Positions 789 through 54,994 of a stretch of 58,386 nucleotides of DNA are shown piece by piece. The translations under genes were made by a program, and so were the position numbers. Positions within the stretch are counted from its first letter, which is position 1; each line of letters opens with the position of its first letter. The notes under the pieces were generated by a model, which did no database searches, was not told where the DNA came from, and saw nothing but the letters and a program-made list of their open reading frames with translations. The stretch comes from a bacterium. Its GTDB lineage: Bacteria; Actinomycetota; Acidimicrobiia; Spongiisociales; ZC4RG35. The stretch spans positions 13,630 through 72,015 of the forward strand of contig JAHEIN010000002.1 of assembly GCA_024639335.1 (NCBI GenBank). Reading direction: 5' to 3'.

Positions 789-2914
789 GATGTTCCTTTC
801 TCTCCTTCTTGCTTCGTCGTCCTAGCCGGGACGGCCAGGGCATCCAGCGCGACCCATTCGGTACCCGACCATGCCAGCGGGTTGATTTCGATCTCGACCA
901 TATCGCTGCTCGCAAAACCCAAGCCGAGCGAAACGATGATCTCGCAGAGCCGGGGTGTCGCCTCCGGGTGGATCCGGTCGAGGGCTACGGCCAAGCCGGG
1001 AGCTCGTCGGACGAGTCTCGTTGCCTCTTCAGCGGTCTTCGGGACCAGTCCCATCACGGGGTCGAAACCTTCGGCAGCGATCCCGCCCAACCCAACCAGC
1101 ATCATCGGCCCGAAGACTGGATCGGTCACGGCACCGACGATGACCTCGAACCCGCTGATCTGTTGTTCGACCAGTGCGCCTGCGATTTCTGCATCTGGGC
1201 GGTGTCGAAGAGCACGTGAGGTGACCGCGGTGAACGCTTCGGCGGCGTCCCCGGCTGCCACGCCGGTCTCGATTCCCTCGACCTCGGTCTTGTGGAGGAT
1301 GTCCGGCGAGCAGACCTTGACCACCACCCGCCCACCCAGGCCGCTCGCAATCGCAGCGGCCTGTTCCGCCGACAGGGCGACCTTGCCCTGTGGGATGGCG
1401 ATCCCCCACTCCGAAACCCACTTCTTCGAGGCGGATTCCTCCATTGGAGCACCTGCCTCGACGCGTCCGGCCGCCACGGCGAACGACGTCGAGTCCGGCA
1501 CAGGCGAGGTCAGGCCCCCGAGGGCGCGGACGGCCGACCTCGGCTCCGTCGTCACCGGAAGTCCAGCCATGCGGAGCGCTTCGAGGCCGTGGGCGCCGAC
1601 ATCTCCGGCCATCCAGAGGTGAATCGCCGGTCGAGCCGATGCGATGAGCGCATCGACCCGTTCGGCGGTGTGAGCGGGCGGGTGTGCAGTCGACACAGCC
1701 AAGACGACGTCGTACTCGTCTGCGAAACGATCGACGACGGCACCGAACCGGGAGGCTCCACCGATGATTCCGCCCATGTCGAGCGGGTTGCTCGCTACGC
1801 CGTGTTCGAGGAGATCGTCGCCGAGCTCGGCCATGGTCGCCGGGCCCGGCTGGGGGAGCTCGACTCCGTGTCGTTCCGCCAGGTCGCTGAGCAGGATCGC
1901 CACACCTCCGGAGTGTGTGACGATGCCGACCCGTCTGCCGGCCGGTCGGGGAGCCCGGGCCATGACGTCGGCGATGTCCAGCAATTCGCCCGGCGTCTCT
2001 GCCATGGTGACGCCGAGCGAGGCGAGCACGCCTTCGAGGACGACGGCCGGGCGAGCCATGGCGCCGGTGTGTGTGGATGTCATCGCACTGCCGTGCTCGC
2101 TCGCCCCGAGCCTGCACACCACGACGGGTTTGCCCGAGGCTGAGGCCGCCGATATGGCTTCCAGGAATCGCTGCCCGTTGCGCACGGTCTCCATCACGAT
2201 GGCGATGGTGCGGATGTCGTCGAGCTCGGAGAGCGCGATGATCCCGTCGGCGATGTCGATGTCGCTCTCGTTGCCGACCGAGATCGACACCCCCAGACCG
2301 CCGCCCCGTTCGGCGGCGAGGTTGTGGATGTAGCTTCCCGTGCCTCCGCTCTGTGTGACGAGACCCACGGGACCGGACCGGATCTGGTCGGCAGGGCGAT
2401 CGAGGCAGGTCAGGAAGCTGACGGCGAGCTGTGCGCGCGGCCTGATCACTCCGCCCGAATTCGGGCCGAGGATGCGAACGCCGTGTCGAGCTGCGATCTT
2501 CGACAGCTCACGCTGCGTGGCACTCCCGCTCGACCCCGCCTCGGCGAAGCCGCCGGCGAACACGATGACCACTCCTGTCCCGACCGTGCCGGCGTCGTCG
2601 ACGATTCCCGGGACGGCTGTCGATGGGACCGCCGAGGCCACCAGGTCGGGAGCCTCCGGGAGGGACTGGAGCGAATCGAACATCTCCACGCCGGGCACCG
2701 TAGGGGTGCGCGGGTTGACACCCCAGACCTTTCCGGTGTACCCGACCTTGCGAAGTGATGACAGCACCCGGCCACCGTGCTTCGAGGCATCGTCGGACAG
2801 ACCGACGATGGCGATCGATTTCGGTGCCAGGAGCTGATCGAGATGCGTCACGGTGTTCGGCTCACTCCCGCAGATGGGGTGCGACTTCGGCCGCAAAGAG
2901 CTCGAGGCTGTCAT
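785..2914 (-). CDS. ADP-forming acyl-CoA synthetase family protein (CoA-binding + ATP-grasp)
   Basis: 709-aa ORF with an N-terminal CoA-binding motif KSIAIVGLSDDASKHGG and a C-terminal ATP-grasp-like region. An alternative GTG start at 2851 would remove the 53-nt overlap with the upstream LLM gene. Confidence 0.85.
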   Translation of the reverse strand: MTASSSLRPKSHPICGSEPNTVTHLDQLLAPKSIAIVGLSDDASKHGGRVLSSLRKVGYTGKVWGVNPRTPTVPGVEMFDSLQSLPEAPDLVASAVPSTAVPGIVDDAGTVGTGVVIVFAGGFAEAGSSGSATQRELSKIAARHGVRILGPNSGGVIRPRAQLAVSFLTCLDRPADQIRSGPVGLVTQSGGTGSYIHNLAAERGGGLGVSISVGNESDIDIADGIIALSELDDIRTIAIVMETVRNGQRFLEAISAASASGKPVVVCRLGASEHGSAMTSTHTGAMARPAVVLEGVLASLGVTMAETPGELLDIADVMARAPRPAGRRVGIVTHSGGVAILLSDLAERHGVELPQPGPATMAELGDDLLEHGVASNPLDMGGIIGGASRFGAVVDRFADEYDVVLAVSTAHPPAHTAERVDALIASARPAIHLWMAGDVGAHGLEALRMAGLPVTTEPRSAVRALGGLTSPVPDSTSFAVAAGRVEAGAPMEESASKKWVSEWGIAIPQGKVALSAEQAAAIASGLGGRVVVKVCSPDILHKTEVEGIETGVAAGDAAEAFTAVTSRALRHRPDAEIAGALVEQQISGFEVIVGAVTDPVFGPMMLVGLGGIAAEGFDPVMGLVPKTAEEATRLVRRAPGLAVALDRIHPEATPRLCEIIVSLGLGFASSDMVEIEINPLAWSGTEWVALDALAVPARTTKQEGEKGTS

Positions 2915-3821
2915 GTGCCCCCATGTCGTAGAAGTAGAGGATCATCTCGTCTGCGCCGGCATCCCGGTATCTGCCCAACTCCTCGATCGCCTCGGGAACG
3001 GTGCGGGCGAAATGCTCGGCAGCGAATGCCGCAGGCGTCGAGTTCCGTCGGACGGCGGCCGTCTCCAGCTTGGCGTCCAGATCGGCCTGGTCCCGGCCGA
3101 TCACCGACATCAGGTGCACCGACCGGCCGATCTCGTCGAAGTCGCGCCCCACGTCCTCGCAATGGCCGGCCAGGACGTTCGACTTGTGAACGAACGTCTC
3201 GACGCTGTCTCCGAAGTTGGCGTGATCGCCGTACTTGGCGACGATCTTCAGGGTCCGCTTCTCGCCGCCGCCTGCGATCCACAGAGGCGGGTAGGGCTGC
3301 TGGAGTGACTTCGGATGGGCGATCGCTCCGTCGAGGCGGTAGTGCTCGCCCGAGAACTGCCCGAGGTCGGAGGTCCACATCTCGATGAGCACCTGGGCGG
3401 CTTCCTCGAGCATGTCGAGGCGAATCCCTGCTCTCGGGAAGTCGTAGCCGTAGCCTTCGAACTCGCCGACCGACCAGCCCGCGCCGATGCCGACGTCGAG
3501 CCGGCCTCCGGAGATGGCATCGACCGACAGCGCGATCTTGCCGAGCAGCGAAGCCGGTCGATAGGGGACGCACGTGCACATCTGCCCGAGGCGGACCCTG
3601 TCGGTCGCCACGGCGAGTGCAGCCATCAGGCTCCATGCCTCGAACACGGTCTCCTGGCTGGGCACCGGGTGGGTGTGAAAGTGGTCGTAGACCCACATGG
3701 AATCGTATCCGGCTGCCTCGATTGTCGCCGCCGTCCTTGCGATGTGTGGCCACTGGTCGGCGACCGGCCGACCCACCTGATCCATCTTCCATCCCTGGGG
3801 TACGAATGTTCCGAACCTCAT
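2862..3821 (-). CDS. LLM-class (luciferase-like) F420/flavin-dependent oxidoreductase
   Basis: Family-like sequence begins at MRFGTFVPQGW (ATG 3821), inside a longer 549-aa ORF whose first ~230 aa are Arg/Pro-rich junk. There is an ATGA overlap with the MFS gene stop. Confidence 0.85.
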   Translation of the reverse strand: MRFGTFVPQGWKMDQVGRPVADQWPHIARTAATIEAAGYDSMWVYDHFHTHPVPSQETVFEAWSLMAALAVATDRVRLGQMCTCVPYRPASLLGKIALSVDAISGGRLDVGIGAGWSVGEFEGYGYDFPRAGIRLDMLEEAAQVLIEMWTSDLGQFSGEHYRLDGAIAHPKSLQQPYPPLWIAGGGEKRTLKIVAKYGDHANFGDSVETFVHKSNVLAGHCEDVGRDFDEIGRSVHLMSVIGRDQADLDAKLETAAVRRNSTPAAFAAEHFARTVPEAIEELGRYRDAGADEMILYFYDMGAHDSLELFAAEVAPHLRE

Positions 3822-5008
3822 GTGTGAACCTCCATGATTCCTTCCGTCCTGTATTCCAACTGTTTGCCGCCGATTCGCACGAGCACCGCAGACACGCCGA
3901 GTGCAACTGCCGCAGCCGTCCAGGCGGCTTGATAGCCCTTGGCCTCCACGATCAGCCCGAAGGTGAGCGGTCCCAGGATGCCACCGCCGAACTGGCCGGT
4001 GCCGAGGATCCCCGTTGCCGTTGCCGGTCCGCGCGGGCTCCGCGCCACGACGGCAAAACTCAACAGACTCGGCCACGCCCATCCCGCACCGAACACCAGC
4101 ATCGTGGCGACGACCAGGGCGAGCTCGGACTGGATCGCGCCGATCAGTCCGAACGCAAGTGCGCCCGTCCCGAGGAGCGAGGGGACGATGGTGAAGTGCA
4201 GGTCGGTGCGGAGGTCTCCGACCCATCCCCACCCGGTCCGGCCGAGGATGCCCACGATGCTTCCCACCGCCAGCAACGTGCCGGCCAGCGAGGGGGACGT
4301 GCCGCCGGCAACGGCTGATTCGACATAGAACGCACCCAACGATGCAGTGGCGTAGACGGCGAAGAATGCTCCCACGGACAGTATCCACAGGGGGAAGTGT
4401 TCGACGTCCTTGCCGTGCCCGTCTTCGTGTGCGGCAGCAGGCTGGGTGAGACCGAACCCGGCGATGATCGGCAGCGCCGCGACCCCTGCGAATGCAAAAG
4501 CCCATCGCCATCCGATCGTGGCGCCGATGAGTGGGACGGCGGCTCCGGCGAGCATCGTTGCGTACAGCGCCGACGACTGCTTGACGCCGAAGGCGACTCC
4601 CTGCCGCTCGAAAGGCACGCCGCGTGCCAGCGCGAGGTTCGAGGCGGGGTATGCCAGGGCATTGGCGACCCCGGCGACTGCCAGGAAGAAGGCCAGCTCG
4701 ATCCAGCTTCGCGCCAGCAGGCCGATCCCAGCCGATGACATGAGGCTCAGGCCTGCCGCCACAGCCATGGCTCGCGGGCCCCCGAGGCGTTGCGCAACGG
4801 TGCCTCCCACCCAGGTGAGGCCTGCGGATGCCAGGTAGTAGATGGTCGCCAGGGCCCCCAGGCGGGCTTCGCTGAATCCGAGCTCCGGCCGGATGAACAC
4901 GGCGAGCGCCCCGACGAGGAAGATCGGCAACGCTCCGAGCGTGATCGAGAGCGTCGTCGCCGTCAGCGTTGCGAGCGGATGCTGGGTGAGCGGTCGATCG
5001 CTGATCAC
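3818..5008 (-). CDS. MFS transporter
   Basis: 396 aa with about 12 hydrophobic segments. GTG start in a GTGA overlap with the upstream CoA-transferase stop. Paralogous in style to the MFS gene at 28588-29781. Confidence 0.85.
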   Translation of the reverse strand: MISDRPLTQHPLATLTATTLSITLGALPIFLVGALAVFIRPELGFSEARLGALATIYYLASAGLTWVGGTVAQRLGGPRAMAVAAGLSLMSSAGIGLLARSWIELAFFLAVAGVANALAYPASNLALARGVPFERQGVAFGVKQSSALYATMLAGAAVPLIGATIGWRWAFAFAGVAALPIIAGFGLTQPAAAHEDGHGKDVEHFPLWILSVGAFFAVYATASLGAFYVESAVAGGTSPSLAGTLLAVGSIVGILGRTGWGWVGDLRTDLHFTIVPSLLGTGALAFGLIGAIQSELALVVATMLVFGAGWAWPSLLSFAVVARSPRGPATATGILGTGQFGGGILGPLTFGLIVEAKGYQAAWTAAAVALGVSAVLVRIGGKQLEYRTEGIMEVHT

Positions 5009-6201
5009 TCGGATGGCGTCCAGGAGCCGATGATGCCGGTCTCGATCAGCCGGGCGACTTCATCGGGATCGATCCCGAGCCGTTGCTCGAGCACACGGCG
5101 GCTGTGTTGCCCGAGCATGGGAGCCGGTTTCCTCGGCATCGACCAGTCACTGAACTTGACCGGTGACGGCGGGTACCTGATCTCACCCAGCGTTGGGTGC
5201 TCGTACGTCTGCACCATGTCCCGGGCGACGACCTGAGGGTGGGTGAACACCTCTCCGACGTCGTTGACCGGTGCCGCCGGGATGTCGTGCTCGTCCAGAA
5301 TCCGCGCCCATTCGGCCTTCGGCTTCGTCTTGAACGTCTCGGTGAGGATGGGAACGATCTCGTCACGGTTCGCCACCCGCATGGCGTTGTTGGCGAATCG
5401 GGGGTCTTCTGCGAGCTCGGGTCGTCCAATCGCACCGCAGAGGTTTCGCCAGAACTTCTCGTCTCTGGCGGCGACCACCACGTATCCGTCGCCAGCCTCG
5501 AATGCCTGCCACGGAACCATGTGGGCATGTGCCGTCCCCTGACGTGTGACGTCCTTGCCCGAGTTCAGGTGATCGAGTGCGTCGTAACTGAGCATCGAGA
5601 CGAGCGAGTCGAGCATCGCGACGTCGGCGTGCCGTCCGTGGCCTCCCATTCCTCGCTCGGCCAGAGCGGCGAGGACCGAGATGCAAGAGAAGATGCCGCC
5701 GGCGATGTCTGCGAGCGGTATCCCCACCCTGGCAGGTGACCCGTCGGGGTCACCGGTGATGTCCATGTGCCCACTGAATGCTTGAACCACCAGGTCGAAG
5801 GCGGCCTTGTCCTTGAGGGGACCGGTTTCGCCGAACCCCGTCACCGACACCGTGATGATGTCCGGGTTTCGCTGCTTCAAGGTCTCGTGGTCGATCCCCA
5901 GCCGCTTCATGACACCCGGTCGGAAGTTGTCGACGACGACGTCGGCCTCCTCGACGAGCCGATAGAAGACATCGAGCCCCGCCGGCGTCTTGAGGTCGAT
6001 GACGACGCTCTCCTTGCCGCGGTTCATGAACAGGTGGATTGCGCTCTCACCGCGGAGGGGAGCGATCTTCGGGTTGCGTGCAGTGTCGCCCCTGATCGGC
6101 TCCACCTTGATGACTTCGGCGCCGAGTTCGGCGAGGATCGCCCCGCCGTAGGTTCCGGCGATCACCTGGCCGAGCTCGATGACCGTGACGCCGGTCAGCA
6201 T
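5005..6201 (-). CDS. Family III CoA-transferase (CaiB/BaiF type)
   Basis: 398 aa. The N-terminus VIELGQVIAGTYGGAILAELGAEVIKVEP is typical of CaiB/BaiF-type CoA transferases. Confidence 0.9.
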   Translation of the reverse strand: MLTGVTVIELGQVIAGTYGGAILAELGAEVIKVEPIRGDTARNPKIAPLRGESAIHLFMNRGKESVVIDLKTPAGLDVFYRLVEEADVVVDNFRPGVMKRLGIDHETLKQRNPDIITVSVTGFGETGPLKDKAAFDLVVQAFSGHMDITGDPDGSPARVGIPLADIAGGIFSCISVLAALAERGMGGHGRHADVAMLDSLVSMLSYDALDHLNSGKDVTRQGTAHAHMVPWQAFEAGDGYVVVAARDEKFWRNLCGAIGRPELAEDPRFANNAMRVANRDEIVPILTETFKTKPKAEWARILDEHDIPAAPVNDVGEVFTHPQVVARDMVQTYEHPTLGEIRYPPSPVKFSDWSMPRKPAPMLGQHSRRVLEQRLGIDPDEVARLIETGIIGSWTPSE

Positions 6202-19509: not shown

Positions 19510-20736
19510 GTGACCGACTTCACCGAACTTCCGATCCCCACGGTGGACTTCGACCTCGTCGGGCCCGCTGTCGGGGAGCGGTTTCCCGACGTCGTACTCC
19601 CTGATCAATCCGGGCAGCCCGTCGACCTCCACGAACATCGGGCAGGGCGGAAGGCCCTGGTCGTGTTCCACCGGAGTGCCGATTGGTGACCGTGGTGCCG
19701 AGCGCAGTTGGTCGAGCTGCAGCGGACATTCGCATCGCGTGACGAAGGCGTGGCCGTCTTCGCGATCAGCTACGACCCCGTCGAGACCCTGGCTCGGTTC
19801 AGCCAGGTTCACGGAATCACCTACCCCCTGCTCTCCGACGTCGGCAGCGTCGTCATCACCGAGGTCGGCGTGTTGAACACCACGATCGAACAGGAGCGAG
19901 CCGCGTACGGACGCCCGATGGAGGACCGCCACCGGGGCATTCCCTATCCCGGCACCTTCTTCCTGGACGAGTACGGAGTCGTCATCGACAGGCGCTTCGA
20001 GCAGTCCCACCGGATCCGCCCGACGGCAACCACCCTCCTCAAGCAGCTTCTCGGCGACGATGACGTCTCGCCCGCAGTCTCGGCCGAGGCAGCTTCTCCC
20101 GGGGTGCGGGTTGCCGCCTGGCTCGACACCGACGTCGTCTTCGCCAATCAACTCCAGGAGGTGGTGGTCCGGTTCGACATGGATCCCGACGTCCATTTGT
20201 ATGTCGACCCCGTGCCCGAGGGCTTCACAGCCGTGGCGGCCACGCTTGCGGGCGACGAACGGCTCCGACCCGAACCCGTCGTCATCGGCGACGGCCATCC
20301 CTTCGAGGTCGATGGCCTGGACGAGTCGTTCTCGGTCGTCGAGGGCGCAGTGGAGACCTCCATCCCGTTCGTGCTGCTCTCCAACCGCGACACCGCAGGC
20401 GATCCTGACAGACCAGTAGAGCTGCGTGTGAACGTCTTCTATCAGGCGTGTACCTCTGCTGCGTGTTTCATGCCCGAAGAGCTCACTCTGCGGTTGCCGC
20501 TCATCGAGCGAGCGAATCCGGGATACGAGACTGCGGAAGCGGCTGCGATCTCTCCGTTGGCGTTCCGCAGGATCGTCGAGGAGCCCAGAAGTGATGATGA
20601 GCTGCTCCGGCTCGTCAATGCTGCGCTGGAAGGGACCAGCGTCTCCGCCGACCAGCTGGCAGAGGTCCTCGGAAAGCTGGCAGACGACGACTTCATCGCT
20701 CGAAGGTCGGACGGTACGTGGGGCACCGCCGGCTGA
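19510..20736 (+). CDS. Peroxiredoxin/redoxin-like protein with in-frame TGA (19687-19689) at the first Cys of the CPxC motif (candidate selenoprotein, W-U-P-W-C), fused to an nDsbD-like Cys-pair domain and a C-terminal extension
   Basis: From GTG 19510, 59 codons of redoxin N-terminus (GERFPDVVLPDQSGQPVDL...KALVVFHRSADW) run into the TGA. The same frame then continues PWCRAQLVELQ..., which is the 342-aa ORF listed from TTG 19708. A SECIS-like hairpin lies downstream. Confidence 0.65.
19698..19725 (+). promoter_or_regulatory. SECIS-like hairpin 3' of UGA 19687
   Basis: Stem 19702-19709 pairs with 19715-19723 (8 bp, one G.U pair, bulged A at 19721). The apical loop GGUCG (19710-19714) starts 20 nt after the UGA. 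Two extra pairs: 19698-19699 with 19724-19725. Confidence 0.45.
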
Positions 20737-26027: not shown

Positions 26028-28577
26028 CTACTGCAGGATCGCTCGCATGATGCGATCGGGCGTCAACGGCAGGTCGCGGACGGGAACCCCCAGCGCCGCT
26101 CTCACCGCATTGGCGATCGCCGCAGTCGCCGGTCCGGCCGCACCCTCACCCACGCCAACCGACGGCTCGTCGGGCCGGTCGATGAGATGGACGTCCAGCT
26201 CGGGAGTGTCTGCGAAGCCCAGGATCGGGTAATCGAGCCAGGTGTGAAGGTCGGGTCTGCCGTCGACGAACTTGATCTGCTCCTTGAGCGCCCAACTCGC
26301 CGACTGGACGATGCCGCCTTCGATCTGGTTCAAGATGCCGTCGGGTTCAACTGCACGGCCCGCATCGACAACGGCCCACGCCCGCACCAGCCTGACCTCG
26401 TGCTCGACCTCGACCTCGGCGATGACCGCCACGTAGCAGGCGACGTTCTTGTATCGGCCAAAGCCGAGCCCGTATCCGTGACCCTCAGGGCTCTGACCGC
26501 CGACGGGCACGCCTGCGCGTTCGACGACGGTCTCGATGACCTCCATCGCACGGGGATCGGAGAGGTGTCGCATCCGGAACTCGACGGGATCCACAGCTGC
26601 CCGCTCGGCGAGATCCTCCATGAACGACTCGATGGCGAACGTGTTCGGCTGTGTGGCGAGACCTCGGAGGGCCGACGTCCTCACCGGTCCGAACGGGATG
26701 AACATCCCCTCGATGTTGTACGGCCCGACGTCGTAGGCAGGCACTGCGTTGCGCAGCACACACCCACCACGTGCCTCGGGGACCGCCGTCAGCCGGACCG
26801 GCTCGACCGGGTTCTCCATCAGCTCTGCAGCCAGCAGGTTGACGCCGCCGGTGTTCTGGGGACGCGACGAGTGCGGGTGACTCCATCCCAGGTGGGTCCA
26901 ATCGGCGATCTTGCCGTCCTCGTCGAGGGTGGCGCTGAGCTCGACCACCATGGCTGAGCCGTATGGCTCGAATTCGAACTCGTCCTCGCGGGACCATTGC
27001 AGACGGATGACCTTGCCGGGGACTTCGCGTGCGATCAGCGCAGCGTCGAGTGCGGCGTCGTCTGCGCCGTTGTGCCCGTAGCATCCCGCCCCTTCTGCAT
27101 GGATCACCCGGATGTCTGTTTCCGGCAGTCCGAGTGCCGTGCTGAGGGAGGCCCGCAACAGGTAAACGCCCTGACTGTGGGTCCAAACGGTGAGGGCTCC
27201 GTCGTCCATTCGTGCGAGCGCGCAGGACGGACCGATCGAGCCATGAGCCAGATAGCCGCGTGTGTAGGTGGCGGTGATCCGGTTGGCGTCGCCCTCGATC
27301 GGCGCAGAGCCATCGATGGTGTACACGTCGTAGTCGTCGGATTCGGTGAGGTAGTGCGGATCTCCGGGATCGAAACCGGGCGCCGCCTCGCCGTTCCACG
27401 TCGACCGTCCTGACAGTCGACGTGCCGCGCGGATCGCCTGTTCCTCGCGTTCGGTGACCACGGCCAGGAAGCTGCCGGATCGAACGACTTCGAGGACGCC
27501 GTCGAGTTCGAACACCGTCGAGGGGTCCACGCTCTCGAGTCGGGCGGTTTGGGAAGGGGGCCTCACCAACCGGGCGTGCACCATGCCGTCGAACTCGAGA
27601 TCCTGGATGTAACTCGGGCGCCCGGCGAGCTTGGCGGGCAGATCGATCCGGCCACCGGCTCGAGCCCGTTGGAGATCGAGTGTGTTGGACCCACCTGCCA
27701 GATTCCAATAGGTGGTGGCTCCGCCGTCGGGAGCCCTGATCAGACCATCGTCGACGGTCATCGCGTCGACAGAGAAGCCGAGATCCTCCGTGGCCAGCGT
27801 GAGCAGTCGCAGTCGGAGCTCTTCCGCTGCCTCTCGGATCGCATCACCGCCTTTCTGTACCGAGAAGCTCCCGGCCGTCATGCCCTCGTTCGGGCTCACG
27901 GCAGTGTCGGTCCGGACGATCCGGATGCGCTCGACCGCCACGCCGAGCGTCTCGGAGGCGATGCGGGCGAGTGCGGTGGAGATTCCCTGACCGATGTCGA
28001 CCTTTCCCGAACGCATCAGCACCGTGCCGTCGCCGAGCACGGTCAGATGGTCGTTGGCGATGCCATCTTCGCGATGCTCAGCGGTGTGACTGCTCGTCGG
28101 CAGTGGAACCGCAATCGCCTCGCGCTCGGCTGAAGCCCGCTGGACCGCCCTCACCATTCGTGTTTGGGTCCCGCACCGGCACAAATTGGCGTCTAGCGCT
28201 TCGCAGATCTCCTCACGGGAGGGGTCGGCCGAACGTTCCAACAGCGCACATGCCGACATGAGGATCCCCGACGTGCAGTAGCCGCACTGTGCAGCCTGCT
28301 CGGTGAGGAAGGCCTGCTGGAGGGCAGCCAGGACCGAACCATCAGGGGCGTCTTCTACGGTCCGGACTTCGCGCGCCCCGACCTCGGAGATCGGGAGATC
28401 ACACGAGTTCACAGGCTCACCGTCGATGAGCACCATGCACGCCCCGCACGAGCCCTGCGCGCACCCGAATCGGGTGCCCTTCAATCCGAAATCGTTGCGA
28501 ATGGCGTACAGCAGTGGGGTTTCGGGAGCGATGTCGAGCGAGCGGGCCCGGCCGTTGATCGTGATCTCGATCTGCAT
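26028..28577 (-). CDS. Fused (2Fe-2S)-binding + molybdopterin-binding hydroxylase (IorA-IorB / xanthine-dehydrogenase-family fusion)
   Basis: Starts at MQIEITINGR (ATG 28577, AGAGAGGA upstream). Fe-S motifs CAQGSCGACMV and QCGYCTSG...CRCG are followed by ~700 aa of IorB-like sequence (DIGQGISTALARIASETLGV). Confidence 0.88.
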   Translation of the reverse strand: MQIEITINGRARSLDIAPETPLLYAIRNDFGLKGTRFGCAQGSCGACMVLIDGEPVNSCDLPISEVGAREVRTVEDAPDGSVLAALQQAFLTEQAAQCGYCTSGILMSACALLERSADPSREEICEALDANLCRCGTQTRMVRAVQRASAEREAIAVPLPTSSHTAEHREDGIANDHLTVLGDGTVLMRSGKVDIGQGISTALARIASETLGVAVERIRIVRTDTAVSPNEGMTAGSFSVQKGGDAIREAAEELRLRLLTLATEDLGFSVDAMTVDDGLIRAPDGGATTYWNLAGGSNTLDLQRARAGGRIDLPAKLAGRPSYIQDLEFDGMVHARLVRPPSQTARLESVDPSTVFELDGVLEVVRSGSFLAVVTEREEQAIRAARRLSGRSTWNGEAAPGFDPGDPHYLTESDDYDVYTIDGSAPIEGDANRITATYTRGYLAHGSIGPSCALARMDDGALTVWTHSQGVYLLRASLSTALGLPETDIRVIHAEGAGCYGHNGADDAALDAALIAREVPGKVIRLQWSREDEFEFEPYGSAMVVELSATLDEDGKIADWTHLGWSHPHSSRPQNTGGVNLLAAELMENPVEPVRLTAVPEARGGCVLRNAVPAYDVGPYNIEGMFIPFGPVRTSALRGLATQPNTFAIESFMEDLAERAAVDPVEFRMRHLSDPRAMEVIETVVERAGVPVGGQSPEGHGYGLGFGRYKNVACYVAVIAEVEVEHEVRLVRAWAVVDAGRAVEPDGILNQIEGGIVQSASWALKEQIKFVDGRPDLHTWLDYPILGFADTPELDVHLIDRPDEPSVGVGEGAAGPATAAIANAVRAALGVPVRDLPLTPDRIMRAILQ

Positions 28578-28587
28578 GTCGTCCTCT

Positions 28588-29781
28588 CTACGTTGTTGTC
28601 GTTGCTCGGTGGTTGGTGGTCTCGGCAAGCGCCAGACGCCGACTCGTCAACACTGCGGCGATCCCGACCAGCACCAGGATGGCTTGGAGCCCGAACACGA
28701 CTCCATACGAATATCGGTCTGCACCGAAACCGACCAGCGGCGGCATCACCATGGTCCCGAGGTAGGCGCCCGCAGCGACTGCGCCCGTCGATGTCGCAGC
28801 CGGCATGGGGATCAGTCTCACGACGGAGTAGAACATCACGCCCTGCCAGCCCCATGAGCCGGCGAAGGCCAGCAGCACGCCGACCACGAAGACCGTGGTC
28901 GATTCTCCAGCCATCCCCAGCAGCCCGAAACCGACCACGGCAATGCCGAGGAGGCCCATGAGCTCTTCGACTCCGGTCTGTTGACGTCGGTCGGCAACCT
29001 GCCCGATCGCAAGCCGCGCTCCGATCGCCACGATGCTCCCGGTGGTGAGGATCCGGGCACCGGCCGTCTGACTGAAACCGATCGTGACGGACGCATCGGT
29101 CACGAACGAGGCAAGTGAGTTGCCGATGCCTCCGCCGATCGCAGCCATGACCATGAATGCTGCGAGGGCGGGGGTCACCTTGAGGCTCCGGCGGTCGACC
29201 GCCGGACGATCACCGGTGTCGAAGCTCGGCGCGACGATCGTCATCACCAGCCCGGCTCCGGCGGCGATGACGAACGGCACCCTCCACGAGGTCGTGAGAC
29301 CGACCCACGGCACGGCGAGTCCTGCCAGCATCGCACCGACCGGCACTGCAGCCTGTTTCGCAGCGAAAGCTCGGCCCGTCCGGTCGAACGCCACCTCCGT
29401 AGCCACCACGAGGTTGGAGGCGATCTGGCCGAGCGCGTTCGACAGGCCACCGACGGCCATTGCGACGCCGAGCGAGACCCAGCCGCCTGCTGCGGCCGCC
29501 AGCCCCGCCGCCACCAGCGTGACCACGCCTGCATAGCGAAGCCCGAGGTCAGGCCCTCTCCGGTCGAGGATCGGTCCGACCATCTTCGATGCGATCGCGG
29601 AGACGAGATAGAAGGCGCCGATCACGAGCCCGAGTCGAGTCCGGTCGAAGCCGAGCTCCTCCTGGAGTCTGACCGACTGCGCGGCGGTCAGATAGAGAGG
29701 GAACACGCCGACGACCGTGTATACGATCGCCGTCGTGATCGGGCGGCTCCCGAGAAAGTCTCGCGGGCTGCGGCCCGTCAT
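28588..29781 (-). CDS. MFS transporter
   Basis: About 397 aa from MTGRSPRDF, with 12 hydrophobic segments. The longer ORF to 29826 would overlap the upstream gene. Confidence 0.85.
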   Translation of the reverse strand: MTGRSPRDFLGSRPITTAIVYTVVGVFPLYLTAAQSVRLQEELGFDRTRLGLVIGAFYLVSAIASKMVGPILDRRGPDLGLRYAGVVTLVAAGLAAAAGGWVSLGVAMAVGGLSNALGQIASNLVVATEVAFDRTGRAFAAKQAAVPVGAMLAGLAVPWVGLTTSWRVPFVIAAGAGLVMTIVAPSFDTGDRPAVDRRSLKVTPALAAFMVMAAIGGGIGNSLASFVTDASVTIGFSQTAGARILTTGSIVAIGARLAIGQVADRRQQTGVEELMGLLGIAVVGFGLLGMAGESTTVFVVGVLLAFAGSWGWQGVMFYSVVRLIPMPAATSTGAVAAGAYLGTMVMPPLVGFGADRYSYGVVFGLQAILVLVGIAAVLTSRRLALAETTNHRATTTT

Positions 29782-39096: not shown

Positions 39097-39159
39097 TCCC
39101 CGATCGCAGACGATGCGAACGGACGCCACCCCTATGCTTGCCGAGCCGGAGGAGACGAA

Positions 39160-39828
39160 ATGCCGAACATCACGATGCTCGAAATCGACGACCTGATGGA
39201 GTCCGAGCTCGCCGGATTCGTCAAGAAGTGCCTGCGGCATCGCGCCCCCGACCCGGCGTTCCACGCCATCCAAGGGCACAACCCGACCCTGTCCAAGAAG
39301 CTCTACATCGCGTGGGGGACCGTCTTCAACACGGGCGTGATCGACCATGGGCTGAAGGAGATCATCCGCGTTCAGCTGTCGCGCGCTGCCGATTGCAACT
39401 ATTGAGGCAACGTTCGATCCGCTTCGGCGAAGCGGAACGGGCTCACCGAGGAGCGCATCGACGAGGGCATCGACCAATGGCGCACGAGCCCCAACTTCTC
39501 CGAGGCCGAGCAGATCGCACTGGAGTACAGCGAGCTCATGCAGTTCGCACCAGACAAGATCGACGCATCCTTCTACGAGCGGCTGGGCCGCCACTACACG
39601 CAGGCCGAGATCGTGGAGCTGGGCGTGTTCATCGGGTTCAACGTCGGCTATCACACCTTCTTTCGGACACTCGACTTCTACCCGATGTTCACCCCCGATG
39701 GGCGGCTCGTCAGCCAGGAGGAGTCCCGCCGGATCTACGGGGACACACCCATCTCACACAACGACGACAGAGTCGTCCGAGCTCTCGCAGAATCGCCAGA
39801 GGATGCTGATGATCCATCCCATCGGTGA
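39160..39828 (+). CDS. AhpD/carboxymuconolactone-decarboxylase (CMD) family protein with in-frame TGA (39403-39405) at the second Cys of the CxxC motif (candidate selenoprotein, C-N-Y-U)
   Basis: The 81-aa ORF 39160-39405 ends ...QLSRAADCNY-TGA. The same frame (ORF 39538-39828 is in phase) continues GNVRSASAKRNGLTEERIDEGIDQW...EIVELGVFIGF and aligns by eye with the adjacent paralog. GGAGGAGACGAA RBS. Hairpin downstream. Confidence 0.7.
39411..39439 (+). promoter_or_regulatory. SECIS-like hairpin 3' of UGA 39403
   Basis: Upper stem CCGCUU(C) 39419-39425 pairs with (G)AAGCGG 39429-39435. Apical loop GGC (or CGGCG). Lower stem CGUU 39411-39414 pairs with AACG 39436-39439, with a 4-nt CGAU bulge. 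The loop starts ~20 nt after the UGA. Confidence 0.5.
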
Positions 39829-40339
39829 AGACGTCGCCAGAGCGCCCGGCCTCATCACAACCGAGCAGTCGTTCACGCGACTGAGCGGCGGGGACACCAC
39901 CTTCCCCCGGATCCTCGCTCACGTCCCGGGCTACGCAGAAGCGATGTGGGACGCCATGTCCGAAGCGCTGTTCGAGGGTGGAGTCGACCACACGCTCAAG
40001 GAGATCATCCGAATACGCCTTGCGAGGACCGCAGCCGATCCCTACTTCGCAGGCCTGCGGTCGGTCCAGGCGGCTGAGTCGGGTCTGACCGAGGATCGGA
40101 TCGACGCCGGATGTGCCGACTTCGAAGACGATGCGCAGTTCAGCGACTCCGAGAAGTGGGCGTTGCGATATGCGTCGCGAATGTACGAGGACCCGGCCGG
40201 CGTCGACTCGGCCTTCTACGAGGAGGGAAAGCGGCACTTCACCGAGGCGCAGATCATGGAACTGGGCGGGCTCATCGCCGTCTTCCACGGGATGTCGGTG
40301 TTCATGTCGACTCTGACCGGCGGACTCGGTGGGACCTGA
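39809..40339 (+). CDS. CMD/AhpD-family paralog lacking the redox Cys pair (D-P-Y-F in place of C-x-x-C/U)
   Basis: MIHPIGEDV, with AGAGG 6 nt upstream. An alternative ATG is at 39803; the listed ORF begins at 39698. Contains LKEIIRIRLARTAADPYFAGLRS...EAQIMELGGLIAVF. Overlaps the 3' end of the preceding gene by 20 nt. Confidence 0.8.
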   Translation: MIHPIGEDVARAPGLITTEQSFTRLSGGDTTFPRILAHVPGYAEAMWDAMSEALFEGGVDHTLKEIIRIRLARTAADPYFAGLRSVQAAESGLTEDRIDAGCADFEDDAQFSDSEKWALRYASRMYEDPAGVDSAFYEEGKRHFTEAQIMELGGLIAVFHGMSVFMSTLTGGLGGT

Positions 40340-40354
40340 CACCGGGAGGGTCGG

Positions 40355-42637
40355 ATGAAGACCAGGACGACCGTGACGCACTGGGGGGCCTACGAGGTCG
40401 ACAGCGACGGCACGCATGTCACGGGCGTACGGCCGTTCTCCAAAGATCCCGACCCTTCTCCGATCGGGGCGTCGCTGGACGCCGTCACCAGGAGTCGGGT
40501 GCTCCGGCCGGCGATTCGCCAGAGCTGGCTGGATGGTGGTCCGGGAACCCGCGGTGACCTGCGCGGAGTCGAGCCCTTCGTCGAGGTCGCTTGGGACACC
40601 GCGCTGGATCTGGCGGCTTCCGAGCTCGATCGAGTGCGGTCGACGCACGGCAACCGCGCCATCTTCGGTGGTTCCTACGGCTGGTCGAGTGCGGGCCGAT
40701 TCCATCATGCCCAGAGCCAACTCCACCGCTTCCTGGCGGTGATCGGTGGGTACACCGACAAACGCGACACCTACAGCCACGCAGCGGGAGAGGTCATCAC
40801 CCCGCACGTCGTGGGACACGGCTACTGGGACCTCCAGCAGGCCCACACGTCGATGTCGGTGATCGCCCAGTACACCGATCTCGTGGTGTCCTTCGGCGGG
40901 ATTCCGCTGAAGAACGCTCAGGTGCAGAACGGGGGGATGGGGCGCCACACGCTGCGCGGCTGGCTCCAGGCCGCCCGCGATCGCGGGACCCGGTTCGTCA
41001 ACGTCTCGCCGACACGCGACGACGTCGCCGCCGAACTCGACCCTGAATGGCTCGCGCCACGCCCCGGCAGCGATGTGGCCGTCATGGCCGCCATGATCCA
41101 CACACTCGTGACCGAGGATCTCGCCGACGAGGGATTCCTCGAGACACACTGCGTCGGCTGGCCGGAGTTGCGGTCCTATGTCCTCGGGGGAGCCGATGGC
41201 ACGCCGAAGACCGCAGAGTGGGCGGGAGCCCTCTCGGATCTGGACCCCGATCGCATTCGCCGCCTCGCCCGGGAGCTCGTGGAGTCGCGGTCGATGCTGA
41301 ACATCTCATGGAGTCTCCAACGTTCGGACCACGGTGAGCAGACATGGTGGATGTTGATCGCGCTGGCGTGCGTCGTCGGACAGATCGGGCTTCCGGGCGG
41401 CGGTTTCGGCATCGGATACGGGGCCGTTGCGTCAGTGGGCAACGGCGCCCCCCGGCGTGCCTTTCCTGCTCTCGGGCGGCCGGTGAACCCAGTGGACGAC
41501 TTCATCCCCGTGTCGCGGATCGCCGACATGCTGTTGCACCCCGGAGCGCCGTTCACCTACGACGGCGAGACTCGCAGTTACCCGTTCATCGACTTGATCT
41601 ACTGGTCAGGTGGCAATCCCTTCCATCACCATCAGGATCTGAACCGGTTGACGACTGCCTGGCAGCGACCCTCGACGATCATCGTCAACGAGCCGTTCTG
41701 GACGAGCACGGCAAAGCGAGCCGACATCGTGTTCCCTGCGACGACTCCGCTGGAACGTCGTGACATCGGCGGATCGGCAAGAGAAGACTTCCTCTTCGCC
41801 CTCGAGCCGGTCATCGATCCGGTCGGAGAGTCCAGAGACGATTACCAGATCTTCTCCGATCTCGCGACGCGACTCGGAGTCGAAGCGGAGTTCACCGAGG
41901 GTCGCACTTCGGACGAATGGGTCCGCCACCTCTACGAATCCTTCGAGAGCCGGTACCCCGACTCGCCGACCTACGACGAGTTCGTCGAGGCGGGGTTCAT
42001 CCAGTATCCGGAGACCCCTGACGCCGTGAAGGTCCTGTTCGATGCCTTCAGGGCGGACCCCGAAGGCAGCCCGCTCCCAACCCCATCGGGCAGGATCGAA
42101 CTGGACTCGTCGACGCTTGCTCGTTTCGGGCATCCGGACTGTCCTTCGCATCCGATGTTCCTCGCGCCGCACGAGTGGCTCGGTGACGTCGGCGAGTACC
42201 CGCTTCATCTGTTGTCCAGCCAACCGTCGACCCGGCTCCACTCTCAACTCGATCACGGCGCGACCAGCGCAGCCAGGAAGATCGACGGTAGGGAGGTGAT
42301 GCGGATGCATCCGGCCGACGCCGCGGCGCGCGACATCTCCGACGGCGACACGGTTCGGGTGTTCAACGACCGTGGAGTCTGTTTCGCAGGCGTCGCGGTG
42401 ACCGACGGCATCCGGTCTGGTGTCGTCGATCTCCCGACCGGCGCCTGGTACGACCCGGTAGATCCGTCGATCCCCGGATCACCATGTCGCCACGGCAACC
42501 CGAATGTCCTCACCAGAGACGAGGGCACCTCTTCCCTTGCTCAGGGGCCTGTGGCGCAGAGCTGCCTCGTCCAGGTCGAGCGGGCACCCGATGCGCCGAC
42601 GCCCGACCCCCACGCTTCCCCCGACATCATCGGCTGA
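40355..42637 (+). CDS. Cytoplasmic molybdopterin (bis-MGD) S-/N-oxide reductase, BisC/TorZ-like (DMSO reductase family type III)
   Basis: 760 aa with no Tat signal and no N-terminal Fe-S Cys cluster. THWGAYEV, FGGSYGWSSAGRFHHAQSQLHRFL and DTYSHAAGEVITPHVVG closely resemble the biotin sulfoxide reductase N-terminus. Confidence 0.9.
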   Translation: MKTRTTVTHWGAYEVDSDGTHVTGVRPFSKDPDPSPIGASLDAVTRSRVLRPAIRQSWLDGGPGTRGDLRGVEPFVEVAWDTALDLAASELDRVRSTHGNRAIFGGSYGWSSAGRFHHAQSQLHRFLAVIGGYTDKRDTYSHAAGEVITPHVVGHGYWDLQQAHTSMSVIAQYTDLVVSFGGIPLKNAQVQNGGMGRHTLRGWLQAARDRGTRFVNVSPTRDDVAAELDPEWLAPRPGSDVAVMAAMIHTLVTEDLADEGFLETHCVGWPELRSYVLGGADGTPKTAEWAGALSDLDPDRIRRLARELVESRSMLNISWSLQRSDHGEQTWWMLIALACVVGQIGLPGGGFGIGYGAVASVGNGAPRRAFPALGRPVNPVDDFIPVSRIADMLLHPGAPFTYDGETRSYPFIDLIYWSGGNPFHHHQDLNRLTTAWQRPSTIIVNEPFWTSTAKRADIVFPATTPLERRDIGGSAREDFLFALEPVIDPVGESRDDYQIFSDLATRLGVEAEFTEGRTSDEWVRHLYESFESRYPDSPTYDEFVEAGFIQYPETPDAVKVLFDAFRADPEGSPLPTPSGRIELDSSTLARFGHPDCPSHPMFLAPHEWLGDVGEYPLHLLSSQPSTRLHSQLDHGATSAARKIDGREVMRMHPADAAARDISDGDTVRVFNDRGVCFAGVAVTDGIRSGVVDLPTGAWYDPVDPSIPGSPCRHGNPNVLTRDEGTSSLAQGPVAQSCLVQVERAPDAPTPDPHASPDIIG

Positions 42638-53723: not shown

Positions 53724-54734
53724 TCAGGTCATCGGGAACGGTGATTGCACCCACCAGGGTAGGTTGGAGGTGCGAACGCTCACGACCCACTTGACCCACC
53801 AGTAGCCGCGGCGGCCCGGAGCGACGATTCTCGCAGGGAAGCCGTGGCCCGCAGTGAGTGGTTCGCCGTCGATCTGGGTCACCAGCCACAGACGGTCGAG
53901 GTCGCGAGTCGGAAACCGTCGGGAGTATCCCGTCGCCGAGCGAACCTCGATGCTGCGTCGCTCTCGTGAGTCGATCAACCTGTCCAGGCGAACCCCTTCC
54001 CACCGCTGCCCGGAGAACCAGCCGCTGGTGCAATCGAGGACCGCAACGATGGCCTCGAGGCCGGCATCTTCGATCTCGGCCAGATCGATCTGCGCCTCGT
54101 CGAGATCGAGCCGCCATTCGTCACCGTCGATGCGCTGGACGCGATCGTCGAACCATTGGGTCACGGGCATGCCGCCTTGGTCGAACGAAGAGCGTTCGTG
54201 CGACCCGGTGAATCTCCGATCGGCGCCGTCCGCGTCCGCAACGGCCAAGGTCTTCTCCCATCCTCCCCAGAGGACGGTGGCGAGCCCGGTGAGCCCGACG
54301 GCGCGCAGGAAGTCACGGCGGCTGAAGTCGCCGGCTTCCGCTCTCACCGGATGGGAGCGGTAGTGGAGGCCCAGCAGGGCCAGCGAGGCCAACCCGCCGC
54401 CTACGTGGATCTGCATGACGGTGAGCGGGCCGATCCGGTCGGTGAGGTCCGCAGCGTGGACCAAGCCAGAAACGAGTGTCGTCGTGATGAGACCGAGCAG
54501 CGCGTACGAAGTCCACCGTGCCGGCCGTTTGTGGCGTATCCCGCTCCGGACGACCAGGGACTTCCAGGGTGCCGTCGCAGTGACTGCGAACGCGACAACG
54601 CCGTGAATCGCAGCCGGGTCGATCGGCCAGTCGTTGCCGATGGTGTTGGAGAAGAGCCCTGTGAGTACGGCAGACGGAACGAGTACCAACAGTGCGACAT
54701 TCGCGCGCCGGCGTTTCTGTCGGTCCGTGGTCAC
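53724..54734 (-). CDS. Membrane-anchored molybdopterin-dependent oxidoreductase (sulfite-oxidase/MsrP-like fold fused to an N-terminal polytopic domain)
   Basis: 336 aa. About 4-5 N-terminal TM helices with conserved-looking His residues, followed by GFPARIVAPGRRGYWWVKWV. Confidence 0.8.
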   Translation of the reverse strand: MTTDRQKRRRANVALLVLVPSAVLTGLFSNTIGNDWPIDPAAIHGVVAFAVTATAPWKSLVVRSGIRHKRPARWTSYALLGLITTTLVSGLVHAADLTDRIGPLTVMQIHVGGGLASLALLGLHYRSHPVRAEAGDFSRRDFLRAVGLTGLATVLWGGWEKTLAVADADGADRRFTGSHERSSFDQGGMPVTQWFDDRVQRIDGDEWRLDLDEAQIDLAEIEDAGLEAIVAVLDCTSGWFSGQRWEGVRLDRLIDSRERRSIEVRSATGYSRRFPTRDLDRLWLVTQIDGEPLTAGHGFPARIVAPGRRGYWWVKWVVSVRTSNLPWWVQSPFPMT

Positions 54735-54793
54735 GACACGAGCGTATCGTCCGGCGGTCCGGAGGTCCGTGCGCCGTGGGTACGCTCTTTCGG

Positions 54794-54994
54794 ATGGCGT
54801 ATCGATGTGTGCATTGTGGGAACCGGACCAGGTTCGACGTGGTCGATGCGGTCCGCCGCAAACAGTTCCACCACTTCACTCTCGGCGGCGAGCTGGACGT
54901 CGAGTCGGAGGAGATCCTCGAACAGGAGATCGAGTCGATCACGTGCCACTGGTGTGATCGCTCCGATGGGATCGAGGAGTACTCGATCGAGTAG
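54794..54994 (+). CDS. Small zinc-ribbon protein (hypothetical)
   Basis: 66 aa from MAYRCVHCGNRTRF...CHWCDR (two CxxC pairs). The listed ORF begins at 54692. Confidence 0.55.
   Translation: MAYRCVHCGNRTRFDVVDAVRRKQFHHFTLGGELDVESEEILEQEIESITCHWCDRSDGIEEYSIE

Follow-up and report, generated by a model that had tools for sequence, protein, structure and literature searches.

An in-frame UGA in a CMD/AhpD-like gene, conserved with its downstream hairpin, predicts a selenoprotein of a known family that is encoded beside a Cys-less paralog

The window, by which we mean the whole 58-kb stretch of DNA that was analysed, is 65 per cent GC and carries mostly small-molecule catabolic and oxidoreductase genes; molybdenum enzymes are encoded at three places in it (26028–28646, 40355–42637, and 53724–54875). 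The gene considered here is a complete CMD/AhpD-like open frame on the forward strand (39160–39828), which begins with an ATG at 39160, ends with its true stop at a TGA (39826–39828), and is preceded by a Shine–Dalgarno-like GGAGGAG that can be read from the sequence 5 nt upstream of the start (39148–39154, forward strand). It holds 221 sense codons if codon 82, an in-frame TGA at 39403–39405, is taken as one of them. Up to that triplet the frame is an ORF of 81 codons (39160–39405) with last residues ...RVQLSRAADCNY (...AADCNY), and past it the same phase stays open for 140 further codons, just as the original prediction had described. The GC content of third codon positions is 0.82 on the 5′ side of the in-frame TGA and 0.81 on the 3′ side, and therefore the coding signal is unchanged across it; together with strong conservation at the protein level this bears out the claim that the region past the TGA is conserved coding sequence. 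When Cys is set at the TGA position, the Pfam CMD domain (PF02627) matches residues 51–122, that is, across residue 82, with 35.8 bits against a cut-off of 23.

Directly downstream, and sharing 20 nt with the 3′ end of the selenoprotein gene, lies a second CMD gene (39809–40339, forward strand) that matches the same Pfam domain and has neither redox residue, with D-P-Y-F standing where the first gene has C-N-Y-U. The continuation past the TGA had been aligned with this adjacent paralog by eye, and the alignment holds over 146 residues with 38 per cent identity and no gaps (E = 3e-32). The other neighbours in the window (an alpha/beta hydrolase, an MFS transporter, a molybdopterin oxidoreductase, and an M24 peptidase) are not conserved beside orthologs, with only the nearest relative (L003) sharing the molybdopterin enzyme and the peptidase at the same place; a guess at function from the operon was set aside for this reason.

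Orthologous DNA was compared from 80 species genomes and two other loci, which with the window gives 83 loci. The hosts include Acidimicrobiia, Nitrospinota, Rhodospirillales, SAR324, Tectomicrobia, Verrucomicrobiota, and Gammaproteobacteria, and in every one of the 83 loci, spread over about 80 species and several phyla, a TGA occupies the column of codon 82, in agreement with the expectation that orthologs would carry it too. The motif C-N-Y-U is invariant throughout, as are Cys79, Tyr81, and Glu67, and both halves of the gene are under strong purifying selection. A lone in-frame stop is the usual sign of a pseudogene, and it could also stem from an assembly or sequencing error; yet neither explanation sits well with an identical TGA at all of these loci or with purifying selection on the two sides of it, and a Logan contig from the sequencing run SRR12825417 begins exactly with the identical TGAGGCAACG... 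sequence. Decay or error is thus extremely unlikely to account for the triplet.

The residue that the TGA replaces can be read from more distant relatives. No Cys form at this column was found among the 82 closest loci. A search with a profile of the full-length protein matches that contain W, run against 1.8 billion representatives, recovered homologs at 27–31 per cent identity that have C-x-Y-C-G-N-x-R-S at the same column (the C-x-Y-C is present in P0147, P0148, P0160, P0165, P0172, and others), and therefore Sec/Cys pairs exist at the level of the family. These homologs and the solved CMD structures confirm a conserved Cys at the column. The assertion that the TGA falls on the second Cys of the AhpD/CMD C-x-x-C was likewise upheld by a search of PDB sequences, in which C79-N-Y-[TGA]82 aligns gaplessly on C48-A-Y-C51 of PA0269 (2IJC, 2O4D) and the TGA also falls on the second Cys of C-A-F-C in Atu0492.

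An ordinary amino acid, whether Trp, Cys, or Gly, might in principle be inserted at this UGA through near-cognate read-through or a reassigned code, and several database proteins do show W at the column (CNYWGNVRSAS in P0001–P0005, P0014, and P0029). These entries are public metagenome calls from short contigs, and the Trp is best explained by translation of such contigs with a table in which TGA means Trp. Within the window TGA is the stop of 40 of the 42 predicted genes, it also ends the selenoprotein gene itself and its two neighbours, and the code is therefore not reassigned; the phyla of the hosts use the standard genetic code, which also counts against an ordinary amino acid. One ortholog, moreover, adjoins genes for selA, selB, and tRNA-Sec (L071, described below). 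Decoding as a canonical residue is accordingly regarded as highly improbable.

The UGA is followed by an RNA hairpin whose conserved core (39419–39435, forward strand) pairs 39419–39425 (CCGCUUC) with 39429–39435 (GAAGCGG) around a GGC loop (39426–39428), all within codons for Ser-Ala-Ser-Ala-Lys-Arg. The hairpin begins 13 nt after the UGA and its apical loop 20 nt after it, and the fold of 39415–39439 has a free energy of −12.7 kcal/mol, a value that none of 200 shuffled sequences equalled. Published constraints on bacterial SECIS elements (bSECIS) are an apical loop of 3–9 nt, an upper stem of 4–16 bp, a G in the first two loop positions, a distance from UGA to loop of 16–37 nt, and a minimum free energy of −7.5 kcal/mol or lower (PMC13188914), and the hairpin agrees with all four as assessed here (GGC loop, stem of 7–8 bp, spacing of 20 nt, and −12.7 kcal/mol). 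In the window alone the helix can be extended (39412–39442, forward strand) by a lower stem of 5 bp joined to the upper one across an A.A mismatch, with a minimum free energy of −18.6 kcal/mol (z = −2.6; 1 of 200 shuffles as good). The original prediction had drawn a GC-rich upper stem with its loop about 20 nt after the UGA, a 4-nt bulge, and a 4-bp lower stem. Its upper stem and loop stand, whereas the bulge and the 4-bp stem give way to 5 bp and a 1×1 A.A mismatch, and conservation across orthologs is limited to the loop and the 7-bp upper stem; the lower stem drops out as a conserved feature.

Comparison among orthologs also speaks for a SECIS. When 67 distinct orthologous sequences were folded together with RNAalifold, the single helix chosen was 39419–39425 with 39429–39435 and the GGC loop. 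One pair in it covaries (UA in 51 of the 67, CG in 14, UG in 2, and CA never), and it connects a Ser codon, through its third position, with the second position of an Arg/Gln codon. Among the 104 columns in which the amino acid is conserved and synonymous alternatives exist, only four have no synonymous variation at all, and these are codons +6 to +9 (GCU UCG GCG AAG) within the hairpin, where normalised codon entropy falls to 0.06 against 0.79 elsewhere; flanking third positions are free to vary. Covariation and synonymous suppression thus add to the published bSECIS constraints in the kind of check for which a SECIS predictor had been proposed, and they favour the element. Rfam at gathering thresholds gave no match anywhere in the window, the hairpin included. 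A permissive Rfam scan of 39300–39560 returned a SAH-riboswitch at 39442–39492 (forward strand) with 20.5 bits against a gathering threshold of 37 (E = 0.077); this stretch is part of the coding sequence, and the match, most likely due to chance, was rejected.

The same features bear on whether the locus is simply a split gene, with termination at the UGA and re-initiation to produce the C-terminal part, giving two selenium-free polypeptides. Two ORFs are indeed what gene callers report at orthologous loci, and some orthologs have a GTG three codons past the TGA that might serve such a scheme. That GTG is present in only 32 of 82 orthologs, though; the window has GTT at codon +3, and its first start codon 3′ of the TGA is at 39538, 44 codons on, with the intervening codons conserved, so that the conserved downstream half needs read-through to be made. 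Splitting would also strip the second redox residue from the protein at all 83 loci, although Cys79, Tyr81, and Glu67 never vary, and a hairpin in which synonymous change is suppressed is what one expects of a SECIS. Two separate polypeptides are therefore a very unlikely product. Taken together, the comparative evidence argues that the gene is, with high probability, a genuine selenocysteine-encoding one in which the UGA at 39403–39405 specifies Sec (U82, in the motif C79-N-Y-U82), incorporation being a prediction from sequence.

The AlphaFold2 model of an ortholog (P0001, 66 per cent identical to the window protein) has a pLDDT of 94.6 and matches 2PRR, 3C1L, 6K40, and 2O4D with a Foldseek probability of 1.00 and TM scores of 0.7–0.8; alignment and model together show an all-helical AhpD-core fold for the modelled protein, with Sec82 placed at the second Cys of the catalytic C-x-x-C. 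The proton relay of PA0269 comprises Glu36, Cys48, Tyr50, Cys51, and His55, and its equivalents in Mycobacterium tuberculosis AhpD are Glu118, Cys130, His132, Cys133, and His137 (PMC3141380). At the same E-x11-C-x-x-C spacing the window protein has E67, C79, Y81, and U82, which correspond to Glu36, Cys48, Tyr50, and Cys51 of PA0269, so that four of the five relay positions of PA0269 and AhpD are kept. The fifth, the His four residues past the second Cys (His55 in PA0269, His137 in AhpD), is absent; Arg86 stands in its place, is invariant in orthologs, and is also found in the distant Cys homologs. PA0269 (2IJC, 2O4D) and M. tuberculosis AhpD are Cys-containing alkylhydroperoxidases with the same AhpD-core helical fold, from which the window protein (about 22 per cent identity) differs in having Sec for the second Cys, about 50 additional N-terminal residues, and a conserved C-terminal extension (FYPMFxPDGRLVSQEESRRIYG). 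A further comparison is offered by the marine debrominase Bmp8 (6OHI), a thiol-dependent reductive dehalogenase of the CMD family, which shares the fold and the position of the C-x-x-C at about 20 per cent identity; no link of the window gene to halogenated substrates was seen.

As a working mechanism, SelB carrying Sec-tRNA(Sec) would bind the hairpin as the ribosome meets the UGA at codon 82, selenocysteine would be inserted in place of termination, and a 221-residue protein would result. Sec82 would then be the attacking nucleophile and could form a selenenylsulfide with Cys79, in keeping with a possible role as a thiol/selenol oxidoreductase, for example a peroxide or disulfide reductase.

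Within the 58-kb window no selA, selB, selD, or tRNA-Sec was found: ARAGORN reported no tRNA of any kind there, none of the approximately 44 window ORFs matched a Pfam model of the Sel families, and tblastn with the proteins of L071 as query found no copy of SelA or SelB either here or at the other loci. This absence, the lack of an Rfam match to the hairpin, the missing relay His, and the low NCBIfam scores given below count against the selenoprotein reading. In L071 itself, from the Alphaproteobacteria MAG OFTM101, the CMD selenoprotein ortholog has a divergent group of Sec genes directly upstream (2326–5838, reverse strand), made up of selA (472 aa), selB (641 aa), and a tRNA-SeC with anticodon tca.

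The window contains a second probable selenoprotein gene (19510–20736, forward strand), which encodes an AhpC-TSA (Prx-like) domain and a DsbD_N domain and has an in-frame TGA at 19687–19689 in a U-x-x-C motif (...FHRSADW-U-PWC-RAQLVELQ...). Of 19 metagenomic loci with a homolog that bears the motif, 18 keep the TGA; a single distant homolog has TGT there. Its hairpin (19704–19720, GCAGUU-GGUCG-AGCUGC) lies 20 nt after the UGA, the same geometry as that of the CMD SECIS, and a compensatory change from G-C to A-U is found in L093 and L096. The gene resembles the published ‘Prx-like 1’ UxxC class (pfam00578), of which it is a candidate member. Together with the Sec genes in L071, it lends indirect support to Sec insertion in the organism of the window. 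In the closed 2.9-Mb genome of a relative, two adjoining called ORFs that both match PF24696 (L001, 4651–5208, forward strand) constitute one UGSC selenoprotein gene split at its TGA (...TAIGD-U-GSCTSCC...), 5 kb from the CMD selenoprotein ortholog.

The family to which the window gene belongs has been described before. In their supplement, Zhang, Fomenko, and Gladyshev (2005; Genome Biol 6:R37, PMC1088965) give a ‘CMD domain-containing protein’ from AACY01716242 with the sequence VDHKLKEVIRVQLSRAADCNYuGNVRSASAKQQGLTEE..., and the supplement of the later survey of Global Ocean Sampling (GOS) data (Zhang and Gladyshev 2008; PLoS Genet 4:e1000095, PMC2398784) places near-full-length GOS reads for this same protein under ‘AhpD-like 1’, which it ranks as the fourth most abundant selenoprotein family. 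A review of 2026 in AEM has the entry ‘CMD-like protein, PF02627, CxxU’. The segment RVQLSRAADCNYuGNVRSASAK of the published members is identical to residues 70–91 of the window protein, JCVI_READ_1558542 begins with MPNISMIDIADLEK... as the window protein does, and the CMD Pfam domain, the CxxU, and a SECIS directly after the UGA are common to both. By sequence, then, the window gene is a member of the ‘CMD domain-containing protein’ family of 2005, the ‘AhpD-like 1’ of 2008. The published members are short marine reads, and the genome behind the window copy is high in GC and probably of Acidimicrobiia; there is no essential difference otherwise. The family has been known since 2005 from ocean metagenomes, and the original prediction was a correct call, not a discovery.

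Curated protein models set this family apart from its nearest named relatives. The best NCBIfam match is NF053654, the ‘YciW-related (seleno)protein’, which belongs to the same superfamily and has a Sec position of the CxxU type, with 70.6 bits against a cut-off of 310; TIGR01926, the peroxidase-related enzyme that the 2026 review calls ‘AhpD-like protein’, scores 24.2 bits against 81.8, and a further CMD-superfamily selenoprotein model scores 20.4 against 110 (the models compared were NF041047, TIGR01926, and TIGR04169). All of these scores are far under the curated cut-offs, and the models therefore represent sister families, different from that of the window gene. The low scores are probably also why annotation pipelines keep splitting the gene. 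Public gene calls at orthologous loci consist of an 81-aa ORF and one of about 134 aa, on the Logan contig with the identical sequence only a 96-aa fragment was called, and protein searches return mostly fragments of 123–144 residues that start just past the TGA column; the forecast that automated annotation would yield a broken gene was thus well founded. A distant two-domain CMD protein of 376 aa (P0155) reads ...GNCEYWATHRSASARRDGLSE... at the Sec column, and it may be another TGA-as-Trp call and hence a further Sec-containing subfamily.

What may be modestly new is the constant company of the Cys-less paralog, at times as a fusion, and the lack of a Cys form among close orthologs. The paralog lies directly 3′ of the selenoprotein gene in 80 of 82 loci, and the remaining two are contig ends. 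In a SAR324 locus (L002, 9749–11029, forward strand) the two are fused in frame through a low-complexity linker into about 425 codons, and similar fusions are found in the proteins P0006, P0007, P0009, and P0012, from SAR324 and some Betaproteobacteria. The paralog is always adjacent and the other neighbours are not, and this linkage suggests an enzyme of two chains, one of them catalytic, in which the selenoprotein and the Cys-less paralog probably form a hetero-oligomer. More tentatively, and with somewhat less than even confidence, the linkage might be taken further: the selenoprotein may never act alone, and it could be the catalytic chain of an obligate two-subunit AhpD-like selenoenzyme, with the paralog as scaffold chain, in a lineage that is Sec-only. 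No Cys ortholog was found among about 80 species, and a Sec-only lineage would be unusual, because almost every bacterial selenoprotein family has homologs with Cys (PMC13188914). The linked paralog goes unmentioned in the papers on CMD/AhpD-like 1 selenoproteins that were examined, their main text and legends contain no analysis of SECIS structure or conservation for the CMD family, and searches of the literature turned up neither a functional study of the family nor an experimental demonstration of selenium incorporation.

These observations have consequences for annotation and for the organism. A common selenoprotein of marine and soil bacteria is still broken by gene callers, so re-annotation is needed for the window and its relatives as well as for many database entries, and TGA-as-Trp calls are a systematic artefact that conceals selenoproteins. 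Only the universal pairing with the paralog, the missing Cys orthologs, and a very strongly conserved SECIS that doubles as the coding stretch for Ser-Ala-Ser-Ala-Lys might merit further work. The locus also marks a probable Acidimicrobiia organism as a predicted user of selenocysteine, with at least two selenoproteins encoded within 20 kb of each other.
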